Counted from the whole stretch's first letter, positions 9,143 through 27,791 are shown. The stretch: DNA of 61,468 nt, filler included, from Globobulimina sp. (GCA_003354225.1; 20 parts of 20 records of this genome joined end to end with filler, not necessarily neighbours in it), one strand, 5' to 3'. The notes: generated by a model from the letters alone, not told the origin. Numbers and translations are program-made.

Positions 9143-9293
9143 NNNNNNNNNNNNNNNNNNNNNNNNNNNNNNNNNNNNNNNNNNNNTTAATTAATTAANN
9201 NNNNNNNNNNNNNNNNNNNNNNNNNNNNNNNNNNNNNNNNNNTAAATTGCTAAATATATTTAAAATTTAAATAGTATATTATAATATAACAGA

Positions 9294-9806
9294 ATGACTC
9301 AACAACTACCAACTAACGAACAATTAATGCAAATGTATTCTCAGATGTTTGATATGTTAAATGCACAAACAACATTGAAGTTTGTAAAAACACGACCTGG
9401 TGCTGGAGTTCAAGAAAATAGTGAAGAAGACGCTGGATATGATGTAAAAATACCTTCAGATTTCAATGATGGTAAAGAATATATAGTAAAACCTGGTGCG
9501 ATGGTTAGAATACCGACCGGATTAAAAGCGTTAATTCCAAAGGGAACATATCTTAGATGTGATGATAGAAGCTCAGTCGGAAAAAAAGGTTTAAAAGTGA
9601 CATCTCCAATAATCGATTACGCATATACGGGTGAGTTTAGTGCGGTATTATATAATATTTCAAATAATGATATCACAATTCAATCTGGCCAAAGAATTAT
9701 GCAGGTGATTTTACATCATTATATTAAACCAAAAGTTGAATATGTTGAATCTATTGAAGATACTTCATCACGTGGTTCAAAGGGATTTGGTTCAACTGGA
9801 TTATAA
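9294..9806 (+). CDS. dut: Trimeric dUTPase, probably from a giant virus
   Basis: All five motifs recognisable: AGYDV, RSS(VGKKG), IIDYAYTGE, GQRIMQ, RGSKGFGSTG. Intronless, with AT-rich flanks. Confidence 0.95.
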   Translation: MTQQLPTNEQLMQMYSQMFDMLNAQTTLKFVKTRPGAGVQENSEEDAGYDVKIPSDFNDGKEYIVKPGAMVRIPTGLKALIPKGTYLRCDDRSSVGKKGLKVTSPIIDYAYTGEFSAVLYNISNNDITIQSGQRIMQVILHHYIKPKVEYVESIEDTSSRGSKGFGSTGL

Positions 9807-9823
9807 GTTCAATCAGAGTATTT

Positions 9824-9850
9824 TAATTAGATATCTAAGATATTTAATTA
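9824..9850 (+). terminator. AT-rich hairpin downstream of dUTPase
   Basis: TAATTAGATATC-TAA-GATATTTAATTA, a 12-bp stem with one G-T pair, 17 nt after the stop. Confidence 0.6.
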
Positions 9851-9912
9851 ATATTTATTTTTAATCGTTTTATGCCTAAGAAAAAAATATTAACATAGTA
9901 TATAAACTCAAG

Positions 9913-10947
9913 ATGCCAATAACCCGAACAATCGATCATAAGCAATTTTTAGATATATCACGGCGGAAATGCCTATTATGCTCAAAAACTTTAACAACTA
10001 ACTGGGGATTAAAACAACACTGTAAATCACTTATGCATTTGGACAACGCCAATATCGCATTAGGTGTGAAATCTGCTGGTACATCATCAAAAACTACAAA
10101 GAAAACTGCTAAGAAAACTACTCCGAAGAATATTAAAACACATCCGGAAAAACGAAGTGGTAAAACCAGATTTTGTTTAAAAGATGCTAAATGTTTTGTA
10201 TGTGATACATCATATTCAACAAAAGATTCACTAAAATGTCACTTAAAGAAATCAAAAGCTCATGTAAAAAACTTATTGAATTGGACTGACATTATCGAAA
10301 ATGAACCAGAACCAATAGTAGAAGAAAAAATGCCAGAACCAGTATTAGAAGAAAAAATGCCAGAACCAGTATTAGAAGAACTCGAAGAGAAAGATAATGT
10401 ATCTGAATCTGATGATGATGATGATGATGATGCAGTGATGGAAATGGCAATTGATGAAGAAAAAACAATGGAACAAACAATATTAATTAATGATCCAATA
10501 CTTGCTCCATGTGAAATTGATGACCAACGTGTGAATCGCAGTGAAGAGGAAGTTCAAAAAATGATTGATGAAGTAGATGTAGAAATTAATAACACCAGGA
10601 GTGGTCAATATAATATTAGTATCAATACTTTAACGCGTAAGCGGAATTCATTAGTAAGTTTATTGTATAAAATGCGTCAGCAAAAAATGTCAGATGATGA
10701 CGAATCAGCTTCTGAATCCGATTCAGATTATTCAAATGTCGATAATAAAAAATTAGCAAATGAGATATTAACACAAACTGTATCTCAGATATCACAACTA
10801 ATTGTATTTTGTAATGATGATAAACACAACAAGGAAATGGTTGAGTGTGCGAAATTTGTTAACAGCTGTAACGCAATGAAAATAATACCATCATATGACA
10901 GAGCAACAAAACAAAAGTATTATATGATTGAGATACGTCACGTGTAA
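9913..10947 (+). CDS. Protein with two C2H2 (matrin/JAZ-like spacing) zinc fingers and an acidic C-terminal half
   Basis: CLLCSKTLTTNWGLKQHCKSLMH and CFVCDTSYSTKDSLKCHLKKSKAH; poly-Asp tracts. Confidence 0.8.
   Translation: MPITRTIDHKQFLDISRRKCLLCSKTLTTNWGLKQHCKSLMHLDNANIALGVKSAGTSSKTTKKTAKKTTPKNIKTHPEKRSGKTRFCLKDAKCFVCDTSYSTKDSLKCHLKKSKAHVKNLLNWTDIIENEPEPIVEEKMPEPVLEEKMPEPVLEELEEKDNVSESDDDDDDDAVMEMAIDEEKTMEQTILINDPILAPCEIDDQRVNRSEEEVQKMIDEVDVEINNTRSGQYNISINTLTRKRNSLVSLLYKMRQQKMSDDDESASESDSDYSNVDNKKLANEILTQTVSQISQLIVFCNDDKHNKEMVECAKFVNSCNAMKIIPSYDRATKQKYYMIEIRHV
10306..10380 (+). repeat. 27-bp coding tandem repeat, about 2.8 copies (PEPxxEEKM)
   Basis: CCAGAACCAGTATTAGAAGAAAAAATG unit; the first copy is slightly diverged. 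Confidence 0.9.
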
Positions 10948-10980
10948 TTAATTTAAATAACAATTGTTATAAAATTATTA
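10945..10980 (+). terminator. AT-rich hairpin at the end of the zinc-finger gene
   Basis: Perfect 14-nt palindrome ATAACAATTGTTAT (10957-10970), extended by TAATTT/AAATTA arms. Confidence 0.6.
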
Positions 10981-11000
10981 TATAAACGTATTATATAATA

Positions 11001-11387
11001 ATGAGTACTAACGCACTTAAATTAGAAATAATGAAATTACGTCGTGAAAATCGAAGATTGCGTGAAAGATTAAAACCGTTGAAGAAATATGAAAGTTCGT
11101 TCGTTGTCAAATGCTATTCGCGCAAAGATATAGAGAAAATCATTGGTTTCAAAATAGATACAATGACATATTCATGTGTATTAAAACGGCTTCATGAAAG
11201 TTCAAAAATACAACGCGTAGCCAGTATAACAATTCGGAAACAAATTAGGAATGCGTATAGTGATTACATGGATTATAGCGGTGAATCTGAAGAAGAATTG
11301 GGAAATATCAGAGTTATATATAGAAAAAATGCTAATTGCGATAAGGAGAATAATATGAATAAATATATAGAAGATGGTGATATATAA
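11001..11387 (+). CDS. Hypothetical basic protein on the virus-like contig
   Basis: 128-aa ORF; ATG preceded by TATTATATAATA; N-terminal coiled coil. Confidence 0.7.
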   Translation: MSTNALKLEIMKLRRENRRLRERLKPLKKYESSFVVKCYSRKDIEKIIGFKIDTMTYSCVLKRLHESSKIQRVASITIRKQIRNAYSDYMDYSGESEEELGNIRVIYRKNANCDKENNMNKYIEDGDI

Positions 11388-11453
11388 GTCAATCGCCGTA
11401 AGTGGCATTTGACGAGAATAGCTACGATATTTGAGTCAATTACATACTAAAAA

Positions 11454-11487
11454 TATTATATAGCATATTAAAAAATGTTATATAATA
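11454..11487 (+). terminator. AT-rich hairpin between ORF 11001 and ORF 11497
   Basis: TATTATATAGCAT-(8 nt)-ATGTTATATAATA, a 13-bp stem with one G-T pair. Confidence 0.6.
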
Positions 11488-11496
11488 ATATAAAGA

Positions 11497-11658
11497 ATGG
11501 TCAAAACAACTATCTTCACACTAATATTATTAATATTAATAACAATAATTTTTACGCAATATTATGATAATAAAAGATTAACTGAGAGATATACAAATAA
11601 TATTCATTTTATTTCAAATCAAATTACAAAATTAGAAAAGAAATTAAGTAAAAAATAA
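11497..11658 (+). CDS. 53-aa single-pass membrane microprotein (missing from the ORF track)
   Basis: MVKTTIFTLILLILITIIFTQYYDNKRLTERY...KLEKKLSKK*. Same strand, same upstream TATA-rich...AGAATG context as dUTPase, followed by a hairpin. Confidence 0.65.
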   Translation: MVKTTIFTLILLILITIIFTQYYDNKRLTERYTNNIHFISNQITKLEKKLSKK

Positions 11659-11661
11659 ACA

Positions 11662-11714
11662 ATTTTTATTATTTTTTTATGTATGATAAATATATAAAAA
11701 AAATATATAAAAAT
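11662..11714 (+). terminator. Long imperfect AT-rich hairpin between ORF 11497 and ORF 11713
   Basis: 11662-11684 pairs with 11690-11714 (about 23 bp with one G-T pair and two single-base bulges). Confidence 0.55.
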
Positions 11715-12222
11715 GGACGCTAAACAATCAAAAATTTGTAGAATCTTCGCAGCAAATGGTGACAAAAACCCCCTAAACGGGCGGGTGTATAAAAATAAAA
11801 ATAATTCGGAACAATATAAAATGATCGTGAAGATTTGCAACACTGGAAATAAAACCTTAGCTGGTATTGTCACCGCGTACAAAAATGGAAATGGAAAATA
11901 CAATCCGTTCACCGACAAAACACATAAGACCAAGGTCCCAGGGTGGGTCGCATCATTTTTTAAGGCAGTAGATAAGTTCTCCGTAACTCCAGCAGTTGCC
12001 AAAAAAGCAGTTATTGCATCAAAAAAAGATGTAAAGAAAACTACCAAGAAATCCGCAGATGCCAAAAAAGCAGTTCCCAAAGCTGCAACGGATAAGAAAA
12101 AAGCAGATGCCGCAGCAACTAAAGCCGCATCTGATTTAAAAAAAAAACAAGCATTAGCGAAAAAATTCAAATCTGATACGAAAGCTGCTATGGCCGCAAA
12201 AAAGGCATTGGCCGATAAGAAA
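11713..12222 (+). CDS. 2-cysteine adaptor domain protein with a Lys/Ala-rich histone-H1-like tail, 3'-truncated
   Basis: ICRIFAANGDKNPLNGRVYK...QYKMIVKIC fits the C-x2-F-..NP.xGR..Y..x-C pattern of the NCLDV 2C_adapt domain. A degenerate second NPFT motif and a K/A-rich tail follow. Confidence 0.75.
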
Positions 12223-12323
12223 NNNNNNNNNNNNNNNNNNNNNNNNNNNNNNNNNNNNNNNNNNNNTTAATTAATTAANNNNNNNNNNNNNNNNNNNNNN
12301 NNNNNNNNNNNNNNNNNNNNNNG

Positions 12324-24411: not shown

Positions 24412-24756
24412 CTTTACTTAATTTGACACGTTTTTTTTAATTCTAATCATATTACAGAATGACATGAAGACAGTATTTATGTTCCCATAATCTCATGACG
24501 GCATTAAATCATTTGTTTATATATAATTTCATGCAAATAGNNNNNNNNNNNNNNNNNNNNNNNNNNNNNNNNNNNNNNNNNNNNTTAATTAATTAANNNN
24601 NNNNNNNNNNNNNNNNNNNNNNNNNNNNNNNNNNNNNNNNATTAATTTATTTAATGATTTCATACTATTTTTTGGATGATAAATATCAATAAATTCCCAT
24701 GTGCACTTTGAGAGTTTTTTTAATTTTCACTCGAGCAAAAACATTTCGTTACGTTC

Positions 24757-25904
24757 ATGGCAGAGGAAAAGCAAAAGAAACAACAAACAGCATTACTCAT
24801 AGGTGGTGCCATAGTGTTAGGAGCCATCGGATATTACTATTACTCATCGCAATCAGAGTCAAAACAAGAACCGAATAGCGCCACAATCGAACAAGTAACA
24901 TATGCGAATGCTAATGCTGACACATTCCAATCCAATAAAATTGATGATAGCAATCAATATGATAGGCACATAATACATACACACAATCAATACATATACA
25001 CACATATATATATATAACAAATGAAATAAACAGCAAATCTGAAGACGATCCCGATGATGCACCAATCATTAATGGAGTGGATGAAATTGAACAACCGGCA
25101 AACTCTGACAATAAACAAGAAGAGGAACCAGAAGCAGTGACAACAGTTAATGAGATTTTGAAGGAAGAGAAAGAGGCAGAAAACGCAAACTCGCCAAAGG
25201 AAGAATCGTCGGTTATGGAGGATTCGCCGGTCATTGTTAATACAATGGACACTGATTCAGAGCCTATAGTCGTTAAACAAATGGTTGATGCACCAGAACC
25301 AGCACAGGACCATAAAGCAACTGGCAACGAAGTGGTAGCTGCAGAGTCTAAGAGCGATGGACAAGAAGCAACACTAAAAACATTGACACAGAAATCTGAC
25401 GATATTGCAGATACAGTGAGTAAACATAAAAAATTGCAATATAAAAATGGTAAATTAACTGTGGCTTTAATTAATTTGGTGAATATTGATAAGAGTGAAC
25501 AAGGTGTGCATGTTTGAGCGCTTCTGCGATTTTGCGTATATTGTTTATTGTGTTTGTACTTTTTATGTGAAGATAAAAATGAGGTTTTGGTGAAGTTAAA
25601 TTTAGCGGAACATAAAGAGCAAATATTGAGTGCGAAAGGGATTGTGAATGATGGGGAGGTTGAGTTTAATGAGAGATTTACATTGGATGTGAATGATACA
25701 TTGAGTGATGTTTTGGTTGTAAGTGTTGAGAATAACGGAAAGGAGATTGGTGCAGTTGAGATAAAGGTGATTGATATTGTTGGTTCAGAAGGACAGTGTG
25801 TTGAAAATCGGGGATTTCAAGTGGTTGGTTCTAAGTCGAAGTGTATGTTGTATTTGGATTTGATGTATTTTGAGTTTGTTGATATGGATAAAACAGAAAG
25901 CTGA
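24757..25904 (+). CDS. N-terminally anchored protein with an acidic linker and a C-terminal C2 domain
   Basis: TM LLIGGAIVLGAIGYYYY. Introns 24966-25033 (GC-AG) and 25504-25572 (GT-AG) join three ORFs in frame. C2 pattern GKLTVALINL..VEFNERFTLDV..VLVVSVE..EIGAVEIKV. Confidence 0.75.
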
Positions 25905-26131
25905 CATGACATATTTCTAGATTGTGCATGACGTATTGCTATTTTATATACTTTAGAACAAGCATTTATTGAAGCCATGTTAGGTATAGCCACACCAACA
26001 ACATACCAAGAGCTTTGCTGCTCTACTCATACGGTACTCACTACTCAAAGTGAACTAGGTTTTGTACTAGGTTACTTATTCTTCTATTTTAGTATTCTTG
26101 TACCGTGACACCGTGTCAGGCAGTTATTAAC

Positions 26132-26458
26132 ATGAGAGACGTAGTGCTTGTACTGTTATTGTCTAGTATCCTGGACCTGGACCTGGTAGAATCACAACTT
26201 CCCACAACCGAAGATATTCCATACACTACAGCCACTGACACATTTGAGCCACAAATCTATTCAATTGCAGAAAGTCACAATTTCCATCCGGAATCTGTCA
26301 ATTCATCTCTTCCCATTCCTGACATTGGCACTGTGGCTTGGTGGGCACAATCTGGCAGTGAAGGTTATGAAGGAGTCGGTGTTGCGTTTACAAATGCATT
26401 CATAAATCAAACGGAACAGCAAGTAATTTATGAGTCAGCTCTATCGGTTTTGGTATAA
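26132..26458 (+). CDS. Possible secreted-protein fragment of unknown origin, abutting the bacterial segment
   Basis: MRDVVLVLLLSSIL signal-like start; its 3' end overlaps the truncated radical SAM ORF. Confidence 0.3.
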   Translation: MRDVVLVLLLSSILDLDLVESQLPTTEDIPYTTATDTFEPQIYSIAESHNFHPESVNSSLPIPDIGTVAWWAQSGSEGYEGVGVAFTNAFINQTEQQVIYESALSVLV

Positions 26459-26976
26459 CAACTGAAAAAATGACCTAAAAAACATTCGGCTTCCCCTAAG
26501 AGGAAACAATCGATGAAAGGGGCAATGGGTTCTGGGTTTAAAAAACAGGCGACTCCCCCTGCGACCACCAGGGGGTGGGTGTGGTTTCGATCAGATGATC
26601 GCAAGGGGATGCCTGCTTCTCCAAGGAGTTGAACAAGGTGTAAAAAATCGTTTTCAAATGATATTGAGAAAAGAATAATATCAAATTGATCAAGGTTTAA
26701 CCCGCTTTCAATGCTTTGATGATGCTTTGTTTTCTGTTTTGAATCTGGGAGGAAGACCCTTTCACAGGAAACATTTTCAATCTGGTTTGCAAGCCGATAT
26801 ACGGTTTGAAACCCTAAACTTGACATACCTGCTTTATAGGTATTGGGATATACAAGGGCTGCTTTGATCAGCCCTATCCCTTTTTTAAATATGACCCCTT
26901 GTTCTTTTGGGTCAATTAAATGTCTTGGTTTTCTTTTAAAGCCATAATTTTTAGCAGGTTTGGACCTTTTTTTCAT
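26428..26976 (-). CDS. Bacterial B12-binding radical SAM protein, N-terminal part only (truncated at a junction)
   Basis: ALVYPNTYKAGMSSLGFQTVY, CERVFLP, FDIILFSISFEND, PLVVAGG..LNPEPIAPFID..LGEAE. Stops before any CxxxCxxC. Starts 3 nt after the ftsZ stop. Confidence 0.85.
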   Translation of the reverse strand: MKKRSKPAKNYGFKRKPRHLIDPKEQGVIFKKGIGLIKAALVYPNTYKAGMSSLGFQTVYRLANQIENVSCERVFLPDSKQKTKHHQSIESGLNLDQFDIILFSISFENDFLHLVQLLGEAGIPLRSSDRNHTHPLVVAGGVACFLNPEPIAPFIDCFLLGEAECFLGHFFSCYTKTDRADS

Positions 26977-26979
26977 TTA

Positions 26980-27618
26980 TCAGTCTGCTTTTCTTCTAAG
27001 AAAGGTAGGCACCTCCAAATCATTATTATCATATGGCATTGATGCATAATCATCTATGATATCATCAGCACCAACTGCTTTTTTTTGCGTTACGATTACA
27101 GGATTATCAAATTCATTCCAATTGGCCAGCTCATCTTCAGTCGGGGTTCTCACATGACCTCTGGAAATAGCAGAAGCCGGTTGAGACATTATAGCTTGTG
27201 GCTGAGCGACTGGTGCGGCTTGTTGATAATTTACAGGCTGGGCCGCTGGATCAAATTGATGAATGTTATGTACTTCTTTATTTTCTTCAGTTCCAATACC
27301 AGTAGCGATCACTGTGATTCTCATCTCATCGCCCAACTCATCATCAAAGGTTTGACCCCATATGATTTCAGCATCATCACCCACTTCTTCATAAATACGA
27401 TCAGAAGCTTCTGTCATTTCGTCAAGGGTTAGATCAGAGCTCGATGTGATATTCATTAGAACGCCTTTTGCGCCTGAAATAGAGATATCTTCAAGAAGCG
27501 GATGAGATATGGCTTTTTCGGCCGCTTCAATCGCCCGGTTTTCACCAGAAGCAATACCGATTCCCATTAATGCTTTCCACGCTTTTTGCATGGTTGTTAT
27601 GACATCGGCAAAATCCAG
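26980..27618 (-). CDS. ftsZ: Bacterial cell-division protein FtsZ, C-terminal half (deltaproteobacterial-type)
   Basis: LDFADV..ALMGIGIASGENRAIEAAEKAISHPLLE..GAKGVLMNIT..ITVIATG, and the C-terminal core DLEVPTFLRRKAD. Confidence 0.97.
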   Translation of the reverse strand: MDFADVITTMQKAWKALMGIGIASGENRAIEAAEKAISHPLLEDISISGAKGVLMNITSSSDLTLDEMTEASDRIYEEVGDDAEIIWGQTFDDELGDEMRITVIATGIGTEENKEVHNIHQFDPAAQPVNYQQAAPVAQPQAIMSQPASAISRGHVRTPTEDELANWNEFDNPVIVTQKKAVGADDIIDDYASMPYDNNDLEVPTFLRRKAD

Positions 27619-27791
27619 GNNNNNNNNNNNNNNNNNNNNNNNNNNNNNNNNNNNNNNNNNNNNTTAATTAATTAANNNNNNNNNNNNNNNNNNNNNNNNN
27701 NNNNNNNNNNNNNNNNNNNCGATATAGTCAGTTTATTATATATTTTCAGTTTTATACGTATTTAATATAATATATAATATATAATATATAC

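Follow-up and report, generated by a model that had tools for sequence, protein, structure and literature searches.

An AT-rich, virus-like contig with a promoter-like motif beside each start codon in a Globobulimina assembly

Does the DNA at positions 9243–12222 of the window (the whole stretch analysed here, 61,468 nt of a Globobulimina sp. assembly, filler included) derive from a giant virus? The original prediction had proposed so, reading the stretch as a contig of Nucleocytoviricota (NCLDV) type within a protist assembly. The window is composed of 20 segments of 2976–2981 nt each, between which lies N44 + TTAATTAATTAA + N44, and positions 9243–12222 correspond exactly to the fourth segment (contig 4; 2980 nt, 30.3% G+C). 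Since the segments are separate contigs joined by N spacers, contig 4 has no physical linkage to its neighbours.

Contig 4 contains five ORFs (ORF1–ORF5), all on the + strand, all open under the standard code and all unsplit, with no sign of an intron. The coding fraction is 87%. The genes are separated by four spacers of 106, 53, 109 and 54 nt, with A+T contents of 82, 92, 74 and 94%, respectively; gene overlaps and near-zero spacers are both absent. The proposed picture of five same-strand, intronless, closely packed genes is thereby borne out by spacers of 53–109 nt, and the AT-rich character of the spacers is measured at 74–94%.

ORF1 (9294–9806, + strand, 170 aa) is, judged by its sequence, a complete trimeric-type dUTPase with conserved motifs, including the C-terminal RGxxGFGSTG. 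Specifically, it matches PF00692 over model positions 8–129 of 129 (E 2.7e-24, 85.8 bits, cut-off 22), the phage family phrog_135 (E 4.6e-33) and 76 PDB dUTPase sequences at E <= 0.001. Residues G48, D50, S93, D108, G113, E114, Q137, R160 and G164–S167 are invariant in the alignment (A1), and the N-terminus is ~26 aa longer than in the closest relatives. The predicted dUTPase gene is thus verified by a full-length match above the cut-off, and both the full-length domain and its motifs are shared with the trimeric dUTPases of large DNA viruses and retroviruses.

The best PDB matches of ORF1 are 3c2t/3ca9/3c3i, 1dut/1f7d, 1duc and 2okd, which we take to be the chlorella virus, FIV, EIAV and vaccinia enzymes, with a top score of 75.2 bits. 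However, viral, yeast, plant and human enzymes all score between 75 and 57 bits, too close together to place ORF1. Its identity is 30–40% to phage, giant-virus, retroviral and eukaryotic dUTPases alike. In IMG/VR, where our scans pick up fairly close relatives only, identity is at most 42%, GVMAG-named contigs included, with the best E-value (2e-21) at 34%; the top protein of the phage collection reaches 37.5%. In these two collections, giant-virus contigs are not nearer to ORF1 than phages are. Two pattern scans covering a single genome of each prokaryote species, with prophages, gave no relative, and none of 50,697 phage records matched at the DNA level. In a dUTPase phylogeny, a check suggested along with the original prediction, ORF1 joins five metagenome sequences (L081, L082, P0001, P0010 and P0013; SH-aLRT 89). 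These nearest relatives, metagenome proteins with 44–53% identity, form a small clade that has so far been seen in metagenomes alone. Two named eukaryote sequences also turned up, one from Salix and one an MMETSP transcript; both are tandem-domain forms and stand outside the grouping.

The start codons of contig 4 share a short upstream motif. ATATAA starts 8–13 nt upstream of all five ATGs, compared with 2 of 80 other + strand ATGs and 3 of 37 − strand ATGs in the same contig, and, in the other 19 contigs, with 2 of 62 starts of ORFs of at least 80 aa. When the 60 nt upstream of each ORF were mononucleotide-shuffled, ATATAA turned up before all five in 3 of 20,000 trials. Exact TATATAA occurs 14 times in contig 4, both strands counted, versus 0–5 times in each other contig. 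In particular, the AT-rich 5′ contig end upstream of ORF1 (9243–9293, + strand), which holds TTTAAAATTTAAATAG...TATAATATAA, has ATATAA 10 nt before the ATG; spacer 1 (9807–9912, + strand) and spacer 3 (11388–11496, + strand) have TATATAA 14 nt before the ORF2 ATG and 18 nt before the ORF4 ATG, respectively; and spacer 2 (10948–11000, + strand) and spacer 4 (11659–11712, + strand) have TATATAA both 22 and 9 nt before the ATGs of ORF3 and ORF5. One repeat (D3) is common to the upstream regions of ORF3, ORF4 and ORF5, and another (D4, 9269–9308) relates the upstream regions of ORF1 and ORF4 with 73% identity over 40 nt. The TATA-rich runs first noticed before the ATGs are real and positional.

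Contig 4 therefore exhibits an NCLDV-type trait, a conserved AT-rich putative promoter motif by each start, which is not exclusive to NCLDVs. African swine fever virus (ASFV) late promoters depend on a TATATA that spans −1 to +5 relative to the transcription start (PMC5294985), and faustovirus and kaumoebavirus have abundant TATATA within the 0–100 bp preceding their start codons (PMC5974111). As in contig 4, the putative promoters of Asfarviridae, faustovirus and kaumoebavirus (TATTT and TATATA motifs) place a TATATA-type element next to most starts; the genes of contig 4 are nevertheless unrelated to theirs, its motif is known from sequence alone and, being so short and rich in A+T, may resemble theirs by convergence. 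The octamer AAAATTGA, presumably the Mimiviridae early promoter, and AAATATTT, which we take to be the marseillevirus motif, have 0 occurrences in contig 4, whereas a AAAATTTA-like element is present ~30–38 nt upstream of ORF1.

Three of the four spacers (1, 3 and 4) fold better than their shuffles. Spacer 1 carries a 13-bp AT-rich hairpin past the ORF1 stop (z −1.98; 6/200 shuffles fold as well), spacer 3 a 13-bp AT-rich hairpin at 11454–11487 (z −3.79; 0/200; inverted repeat I11), and spacer 4 a T-run and an AT hairpin (z −2.39; 5/200; inverted repeat I8), while spacer 2 carries a weak palindrome (z −0.27). Mimiviridae transcripts end at hairpin-forming palindromes (PMC4402537), and the AT-rich hairpins past three of the four stops resemble this rule, with a modest signal.

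ORF5 (11713–12222, + strand) encodes at least 170 aa and has no stop, being cut by the contig end. Residues 9–44 match positions 2–35 of the 35 in the 2-cysteine adaptor model (2C_adapt, PF08793) with an E-value of 1.7e-3. For the predicted 2-Cys-adaptor protein, the match spans nearly the whole model, but the score, 19.0 bits, is below the cut-off of 22. The model is not promiscuous on AT-rich DNA, as neither 8 large IMG/VR records nor 14 control genomes yield a match at E <= 0.01. The domain is termed 'virus-specific' in PMC6163548, and the candidate adaptor segment is the sole NCLDV-specific marker on contig 4, below the Pfam cut-off. It is followed by a Lys/Ala-rich basic tail (residues 86–170; 32% K, 27% A, pI 10.3). 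The same paper describes ascovirus P64 as having four adaptor copies, 14 Arg/Ser-rich repeats and a basic C-terminal repeat domain that condenses viral DNA, and defines the P64 family by several vs2C-ad motifs plus tandem repeats [SPSQRRSTS(V/K)(A/S)RR] (PMC6163548). ORF5 is laid out alike, with an N-terminal 2C_adapt-like segment and then a strongly basic low-complexity tail, but it differs in its one sub-threshold adaptor copy, its Lys/Ala-rich, histone-H1-like tail and its truncation at the contig end. We considered membership of the P64 family and rejected it, given the single sub-threshold adaptor match and the lack of Arg/Ser repeats; only the layout is alike. No homologue of ORF5 was found in the collections searched.

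ORF2 (9913–10947, + strand, 344 aa) is an orphan, with no homologue found in the collections searched. Two C-x2-C-x12-H-x5/6-H patterns are visible in it, in keeping with the C2H2 protein originally proposed, but its match to zf-C2H2_4 is weak (E 6.3e-4, 20.7 bits, below the cut-off of 27), and the Atlas offers a lead to zf-met clusters alone, its recognition being too low to be usable. ORF2 is basic over its first 125 aa (pI 10.1), where a Lys/Thr-rich stretch accompanies the two C2H2-like fingers, and acidic in its C-terminal part (pI 4.2), which has a seven-Asp run and a 27-nt tandem repeat present three times (PEP-EEKM repeat; repeats D2 and D11). With the Lys/Ala tail of ORF5, the poly-Asp run and tandem repeat of ORF2 make low-complexity sequence abundant in the proteins of contig 4.

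ORF3 (11001–11387, + strand, 128 aa) is basic (pI 9.5) and predicted to form a long N-terminal helix; it matches no family at E < 0.06, no relative of it was found, and its AF2 model is unusable (pLDDT 47.3). ORF4 (11497–11658, + strand, 53 aa) has a hydrophobic N-terminus, by eye a likely membrane segment, and a charged C-terminal half, and its family matches are at chance level (E >= 0.026). ORF3 and ORF4 are thus the two orphans of the original prediction, neither having a Pfam family match. Relatives of ORF2, ORF3 and ORF5 were not found in IMG/VR or giant-virus MAG contigs, scans in which fairly close relatives are detectable, and ORF2–ORF5 gave no PHROG match at E < 0.02. Altogether, the collections searched contain no relative of four of the five genes (ORF2–ORF5).

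The other 19 contigs of the window contain eukaryote-type gene families, some of them split into adjoining frames, and include one bacterial contig (contig 9, with FtsZ_C and a radical-SAM N-terminal domain). Some host-like genes are single long ORFs, such as an S28 peptidase of 484 aa and an AMP deaminase of 813 aa. The tetranucleotide make-up of contig 4 correlates at 0.72–0.96 with that of other contigs, and its GC3 (0.13–0.35) overlaps that of the eukaryote-like contigs (0.14–0.54), so composition does not distinguish it. The start-adjoining motif is not common to any other contig of the window. Contig 4 is unlike the rest of the window in its per-gene promoter-like motif, its dense, unsplit, same-strand ORFs and its four relative-less genes.

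Contig 4 is a real, non-host-like, virus-like fragment. We favour, at somewhat better than even confidence, its being a fragment of an AT-rich large eukaryotic DNA virus, most likely Nucleocytoviricota-like, co-assembled with AT-rich protist DNA. The lack of hallmark genes (MCP, PolB, A32) reported originally is reproduced: a Pfam scan of all five ORFs detected no capsid, PolB, A32, VLTF3, D5 or RNA polymerase family, and 40 ORFs from the remaining 19 contigs (10 of these ORFs re-scanned at E <= 0.1) gave none. What survives of the giant-virus proposal is a virus-like contig that differs from the window and whose best hits are not cellular; membership of the Nucleocytoviricota is unproven because contig 4 carries no hallmark gene, and the 2C_adapt match is sub-threshold.

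On the large-virus reading, each gene would be its own transcription unit, started from TATATAA as an initiator-type promoter by a virus-encoded or hijacked RNA polymerase. Leaders would then be only a few nucleotides long, comparable to those of ASFV late promoters, and the AT-rich hairpins past three of the four stops may mark transcript 3′ ends. The dUTPase would hold dUTP low, thereby keeping uracil out of the AT-rich viral DNA. ORF5, with its adaptor-like domain and Lys/Ala tail laid out as in ascovirus P64, may be a DNA-binding or DNA-condensing protein; ORF2 may be an acidic-tailed regulator that binds nucleic acids through zinc fingers; and ORF4 is possibly a small membrane protein.

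Gene context was read for two of the five members of the ORF1 clade, L081 and L082. Their contigs are laid out like contig 4, with 20–21% G+C and genes on the same strand, and most of these genes have TAAAATTTAYT...TATA(T/A)AAA adjoining the ATG (L081: 3/3 complete spacers). The region upstream of ORF1 contains a similar element, and the AAAATTTA-like element lies ~30–38 nt upstream of most L081/L082 genes as it does before ORF1; the hairpin signal is absent from both L081 and L082. L082 also encodes a C2H2-like finger resembling that of ORF2 (E 6e-4 in a single comparison) and a Lys-rich basic stretch that we read as NLS-like. In L081, a DUF6378-thymidylate-synthase homologue, the dUTPase and a 5-hmdU DNA kinase adjoin one another, and in L082 the thymidylate-synthase homologue adjoins the dUTPase; the components of this module match phrog_160, phrog_135 and phrog_2396. 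The arrangement is reminiscent of phage thymidine-hypermodification clusters, which combine a dUMP hydroxymethylase-like thymidylate-synthase homologue with a 5-hmdU DNA kinase: both genes stand beside the dUTPase in L081, the synthase homologue in L082. Contig 4, in contrast, has neither synthase homologue nor kinase.

The main rival to the giant-virus reading, which we regard as unlikely yet carry along, is a phage of an associated bacterium. Contig 4 would be a bacteriophage fragment, possibly of a large phage, from an AT-rich bacterium that lives with or is eaten by the protist and does without Shine-Dalgarno sequences; TATATAA would represent −10-like boxes, and the mRNAs would be leaderless or nearly so. 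We keep this explanation because there is no hallmark gene, the 2C_adapt match is sub-threshold, the dUTPase identities do not discriminate, and the relatives carry a synthase homologue and a 5-hmdU DNA kinase. Bacterial DNA is present in the assembly (contig 9), but bacterial-type signals in contig 4 are lacking. Specifically, GGAG, GAGG, AGGA, AAGG and GGA are absent from the 20 nt before all five ATGs, upholding the reported lack of Shine-Dalgarno motifs (0/5 starts), and neither sigma-70-like sites (23 versus 18.3 ± 4.4 in shuffles) nor terminator-like sites (1 versus 1.3 ± 1.1) exceed chance. ORF1 matches phrog_135, against which stand the absence of PHROG matches for ORF2–ORF5, of a DNA match in the phage records, of phage-collection identities above 37.5% and of any relative in the two prokaryote scans. 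Terminase, portal and HK97-fold capsid gave no PHROG or Pfam match on contig 4, although a 3-kb piece can miss these by chance. All four spacers are short, each with its own motif, and no genes overlap; on the other side, a 620-kb Caudoviricetes record has 100–300 nt spacers around its dUTPase. The thymidine-modification genes that adjoin the L081 and L082 dUTPases are of phage type, and among the papers listed, the 5-hmdU DNA kinase belongs to bacterial viruses or serves as a laboratory reagent. The C2H2/zf-met-like clusters include one labelled Uroviricota (a lead only), whereas the 2C_adapt match, the poly-Asp run and the Lys/Ala tail point elsewhere. A G+C content of 20–21%, as in the relatives, is rare among phages.

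Improbable in our view is some other eukaryotic mobile DNA, namely a virophage, a polinton-like virus, an unclassified small or large DNA virus or a linear plasmid, using a helper-virus promoter or its own. Such an element could have the same layout, with short AT-rich spacers and a conserved motif by each ATG, mostly orphan genes and no NCLDV hallmark, and the promoter motifs of virophages and polinton-like viruses match those of their helper viruses (TCTA is the virophage late promoter motif). However, double or single jelly-roll capsid, FtsK-type ATPase, cysteine protease and pPolB/integrase are all absent from contig 4, and a dUTPase and a 2C_adapt-like domain are, to our knowledge, atypical cargo for virophage or polinton-like elements. 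Ordinary nuclear DNA of the protist or another AT-rich eukaryote, that is, a tight group of intron-less, lineage-specific genes whose core promoters are TATA-like, is very unlikely: the tetranucleotide correlation, the overlapping GC3 and the single long ORFs of host-like genes agree with it, but ATATAA adjoins every ATG here and 2 of 62 ORF starts elsewhere in the window, the spacers are merely 53–109 nt, the dUTPase groups with AT-rich metagenome contigs carrying a 5-hmdU DNA kinase and not with the Salix and MMETSP sequences, and a TATA box 8–13 nt from the ATG is too close for the usual start-site distance of ~30 nt.

Within the large-virus reading, a bolder and rather doubtful proposal is that contig 4 and the clade members L081, L082, P0001, P0010 and P0013 represent an undescribed lineage of very AT-rich protist DNA viruses with their own bipartite gene-proximal promoter (a AAAATTTA-like element ~30–38 nt and TATATAA ~10 nt before the ATG), some of which would carry a thymidine-hypermodification module. 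If so, they would give an initial hint that a eukaryotic virus can hypermodify its DNA in phage style, and contig 4 would be an initial genomic trace of a virus of this kind in the protist.

Contig 4 (9243-12222 of the window, exactly one segment of 2980 nt with 30.3% G+C) is a real and virus-like sequence. It contains five ORFs on the plus strand, all open in the standard code: ORF1 (9294-9806, 170 aa), ORF2 (9913-10947, 344 aa), ORF3 (11001-11387, 128 aa), ORF4 (11497-11658, 53 aa) and ORF5 (11713 to the contig end, at least 170 aa). The original prediction described tightly packed, same-strand genes with AT-rich spacers, TATA-rich runs and no Shine-Dalgarno motif, and all of these features are borne out. 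Specifically, 87% of the contig is coding, the four spacers measure 106, 53, 109 and 54 nt with A+T contents of 82, 92, 74 and 94%, and none of GGAG, GAGG, AGGA, AAGG and GGA occurs within 20 nt upstream of any of the five start codons. A minus-strand ORF at 11619-12266 was read as the mirror of the Lys/Ala-rich coding repeat of ORF5 and rejected as a separate gene.

The TATA-rich runs contain a positioned signal. ATATAA begins 8-13 nt before the ATG of all five ORFs, and an exact TATATAA lies within 22 nt of the ATG in four of them. The hexamer occupies this position at only 2 of 80 other plus-strand ATGs and 3 of 37 minus-strand ATGs of contig 4, and it is not a shared start signal of the other 19 contigs (2 of 62 starts of ORFs of at least 80 aa). 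Shuffling of the upstream regions placed the motif at all five ORFs in 3 of 20,000 trials. TATATAA occurs 14 times on the two strands of contig 4 versus 0-5 times on each other contig, and 46 times in the whole window versus 29.5 ± 6.6 expected. The upstream regions are alike past the motif as well, with two repeat families (D3 and D4) showing 73-79% identity over 24-40 nt.

On contig 4, σ70-like sites (23 versus 18.3 ± 4.4) and intrinsic-terminator-like sites (1 versus 1.3 ± 1.1) occur about as often as expected by chance. An AT-rich hairpin of 13 bp is present in three of the four spacers, whose folds beat dinucleotide shuffles (z −1.98, −3.79 and −2.39, equalled by 6, 0 and 5 of 200 shuffles), while the remaining spacer gives no hairpin signal (z −0.27). 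Contig 4 lacks both AAAATTGA, which we take to be the Mimiviridae octamer, and AAATATTT, presumably the marseillevirus motif. In published work, late promoters of ASFV require TATATA at −1 to +5 relative to the start site (PMC5294985), the 0-100 bp preceding faustovirus and kaumoebavirus start codons are rich in TATATA (PMC5974111), and Mimiviridae transcripts end at hairpin-forming palindromes (PMC4402537). On paper, the signals of contig 4 could work like those of these systems.

ORF1 encodes a complete dUTPase of the trimeric family (PF00692, E 2.7e-24; phrog_135, 4.6e-33), with the catalytic motifs kept in alignment. Its TIGR00576 score of 94.5 bits is under the cut-off of 102.55, indicating a divergent enzyme. 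Among 1.84 billion representative proteins, 18,666 relatives were found at E ≤ 0.001, of which only two reach E ≤ 1e-30. Identity to the best single-domain matches is 45-53%, and the relatives looked up are metagenome proteins, apart from tandem-domain eukaryote forms (Salix and an MMETSP transcript). The top PDB matches are 3c2t, 3ca9 and 3c3i (72.5-75.2 bits), followed by 1dut/1f7d, 1duc and 2okd; together these are dUTPases of chlorella virus, FIV, EIAV and vaccinia. Bacterial, yeast, plant and human dUTPases are close behind (57-60 bits). Identity to IMG/VR contigs, GVMAG-named ones included, is at most 42%. In the phage collection, 1,328 records match ORF1, all at less than 60% identity (best 37.5%), and the phage records contain no nucleotide-level match to contig 4. 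Neither of two pattern scans over prokaryotes, with one genome per species, yielded a relative. In a maximum-likelihood tree of 127 rows, built by a quick method, ORF1 falls into a six-member clade (SH-aLRT 89) with five metagenome dUTPases, P0013, P0010, P0001, L081 and L082. Because ORF1 is 30-40% identical to everything outside the clade and few rows are labelled, the tree shows the clade and not its origin.

The contigs of two clade members, L081 (1-2534, 2.5 kb) and L082 (1-3602, 3.6 kb), are 20-21% G+C and encode dUTPases 49-50% identical to ORF1. The main ORFs of each share a strand, and a strongly conserved element stands before most of them. In L081 this element is TTTTAAAATTTATT-N10-TTATATAAAA-N4-ATG, and all three complete spacers carry an almost identical version of about 40 nt ending in TTATATAAAA-N4-ATG. 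The arrangement upstream of ORF1 is similar: TTTAAAATTTAAAT, then TATAATATAA, then ATG. Across IMG/VR, the strict L081 promoter pattern has no match. A loose pattern matches 120 stretches, with one match each among the 80 listed and no contig carrying several, which is chance level for AT-rich contigs. The L081 and L082 hairpins give no signal above shuffles. A C2H2-like finger encoded by L082 shares 14 of 32 residues with the second finger of ORF2 (E 6e-4, single comparison). A further L082 protein has a Lys-rich basic segment that can be read as NLS-like, and the two contigs also encode a Cys-rich protein. In both contigs a DUF6378-thymidylate-synthase homologue adjoins the dUTPase, and in L081 a 5-hmdU DNA kinase begins as well; synthase homologue, dUTPase and kinase match phrog_160, phrog_135 and phrog_2396, respectively, and the IMG/VR relatives of the synthase homologue are 32-40% identical to it. 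Among the publications listed, the literature on 5-hmdU DNA kinase concerns bacterial viruses or reagent use. The evidence from L081 and L082 cuts both ways between phage and eukaryotic virus, and the kinase-bearing metagenome contigs raise the question of thymidine hypermodification outside phages. The boldest reading of these data, and an unlikely one, is that the sequences come from a lineage of AT-rich protist viruses not yet described, in which some members carry genes for phage-style thymidine hypermodification.

Among the gene identities of the original prediction, that of the dUTPase holds, and those of the C2H2 protein and the 2-cysteine adaptor (2C_adapt, PF08793) protein have Pfam matches under the cut-offs. 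The N-terminal part of ORF2 is basic (pI 10.1) and contains two C-x2-C-x12-H-x5/6-H patterns, with a weak zf-C2H2_4 match (20.7 bits versus a cut-off of 27). Towards the C-terminus ORF2 turns acidic (pI 4.2); this part includes three copies of a 27-nt tandem repeat (10297-10380), which encodes a PEP(I/V)(V/L)EEKM-type unit, and a run of seven Asp residues. Lys/Thr-rich coding stretches of ORF2 (10069-10116) and ORF5 (12004-12051) share 71% DNA identity over 48 nt (repeat family D1), a likeness that could stem from low complexity common to both coding stretches or from a small duplication within the contig. ORF3 has a pI of 9.5 and ORF4 a hydrophobic N-terminus; neither has a match in the family scans or the local tblastn. 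ORF5 aligns with positions 2-35 of the 35-position 2C_adapt model (E 1.7e-3, 19.0 bits, cut-off 22), followed by a tail of 85 residues with 32% Lys, 27% Ala and a pI of 10.3. At E ≤ 0.01 the same model finds nothing in eight large IMG/VR records or in 14 control genomes, so AT-rich sequence as such does not trigger it; one of the first five of these records searched, G002, is NCLDV (Nucleocytoviricota) by six capsid matches. The 2C_adapt domain of ORF5 is probable, and not established. Ascovirus P64 joins a virus-specific adaptor to a basic tail and condenses viral DNA (PMC6163548). The layout of ORF5 is alike, with an adaptor-like segment fused to a basic tail; however, ORF5 is no member of the P64 family, having a single sub-threshold adaptor copy and a Lys/Ala tail instead of the Arg/Ser repeats of P64.

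None of the searches run for ORF2-ORF5 recovered a relative. ORF2 has no homologue among 2977 candidates, none was found for ORF5 residues 1-90, and the Atlas gave weak zf-met leads for ORF2 and nothing else, including nothing for the ORF5 N-terminus. IMG/VR scans for close relatives of ORF1, ORF2, ORF3 and ORF5 found none, and a local tblastn of the five proteins against 98 loci (1.42 Mb) and the window recovered dUTPases only. As the homologue searches depend on shared words or patterns, they may miss distant relatives of ORF2-ORF5. Single-sequence fold models of ORF3 (mean pLDDT 47.3) and ORF5 residues 1-90 (46.2) are too low in confidence to use.

The window (1-61468) consists of 20 contigs of 2976-2981 nt ordered by length and joined by 44 N, the 12-mer TTAATTAATTAA and 44 N. 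Since the segments are separate contigs, the neighbours are unlinked to contig 4 and show only what else the assembly contains. We scanned 40 ORFs of the other 19 contigs against Pfam and re-scanned ten at a looser threshold; no NCLDV hallmark family was matched. The eukaryote-type families comprise S28 serine carboxypeptidase, AMP deaminase, cytochrome-b5-fused desaturase, class 3 lipase, RGS, UDPGP, phospholipase B, DHHC palmitoyltransferase, a KH/RRM protein and GlcNAc 2-epimerase. Several of these genes are broken across adjoining frames, the pattern expected of short introns or frameshifts. In contig 10 (29054-30749) and contig 17 (49265-51168), eukaryote-type genes (RGS, GMC oxidoreductase) are broken across adjoining or overlapping frames of one strand, which short introns and low-coverage-assembly frameshifts would both fit. 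Contig 9 (24641-27619, minus strand, 38.7% G+C) encodes an FtsZ C-terminal domain (E 2.2e-35) and a radical-SAM N-terminal domain (E 5.4e-38), and this bacterial look points to bacterial, or possibly organellar, DNA in the assembly. Contig 4 is not set apart by composition: its tetranucleotide correlation with the other contigs is 0.72-0.96, and GC3 is 0.13-0.35 in its ORFs versus 0.14-0.54 in the eukaryote-like ones. The highest correlation (0.96) is with contig 7 (18483-21461, 27.5% G+C), the most AT-rich contig, which has three closely spaced ORFs distributed over the two strands (one for a GNAT acetyltransferase, the other two with no family match), all lacking the ATATAA signal.

Giant-virus fragments are common in protist assemblies. 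A virus of a eukaryote is suggested by the separate signal next to each ATG, by spacers of which none is near zero, by the lack of bacterial translation and transcription signals, by proteins rich in low-complexity sequence, by the probable virus-specific adaptor domain and basic tail in a P64 layout, and by the low G+C of the L081 and L082 relatives. We lean, slightly, towards a giant-virus-like origin. The original proposal is supported in part, and the dUTPase tree does not point to a giant virus. As had been stated at the outset, contig 4 carries no Nucleocytoviricota hallmark gene, an absence that a 3-kb piece can show by chance.

That contig 4 is a phage fragment is unlikely. The bacterial DNA in the assembly and the phage-type thymidine-modification module accompanying the dUTPase clade speak for it, and eukaryotic viruses are not alone in having C2H2-like fingers (an Atlas lead only). 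Within the phage collection, ORF1 scores highest (84 bits, 35.3% identity) against a protein annotated 'trimeric dUTPase domain protein' in L098, the Caudoviricetes record BTJB01000001.1 (Mollyvirus Mo1-1, 620,463 bp). Genes near this dUTPase are 100-300 nt apart, so wide spacing, present in at least this giant tailed phage, does not by itself exclude a phage. Another eukaryotic virus or a mobile element, which would also accord with the signals next to each ATG, is quite improbable. Cellular DNA is very unlikely. The best hits and the tree of the dUTPase do not place it in cellular genomes, a placement that the original prediction had named as evidence against a virus.

If viral, contig 4 belongs to a new, unplaced virus linked to an AT-rich protist, and the viruses of this protist may not have been described yet. 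Taken alone, 3 kb of sequence with a single recognisable enzyme and without a hallmark gene contributes little, and its chief use is as a seed: coverage combined with ATATAA 8-13 nt upstream of start codons is a handle by which the remainder of the virus could be retrieved from the assembly.

Among independent reads, run X1, one of three from one sample, contains 0.62 of the sampled words of contig 4, and its assembled pieces, short and with a word depth of about 3-6, cover 27 of 30 bins with a few base differences. The other two runs, X2 and X3, have only matches of 18-33 nt, which are not proof of absence. Among the X1 pieces listed (8 of 13), one crosses the ORF2-ORF3 spacer and one crosses ORF4 into ORF5; the ORF1-ORF2 and ORF3-ORF4 adjacencies come from the original assembly alone. 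Loose ends at 9306, 9874, 11404, 11442 and 11631, mostly in or near spacers, indicate that contig 4 has part of its sequence in common with other X1 contigs, which then continue differently. An X1 contig of the same sample has a 6-nt insertion (GAACCA) behind 10302, a length variant of the ORF2 repeat. An X1 piece is identical to 9243-9306 (64 nt, comprising the ORF1 upstream region and the first 13 coding bases), extends 42 nt past the 5′ end and diverges for 239 nt; it may represent a repeated promoter-bearing sequence elsewhere in the source, or assembly ambiguity.
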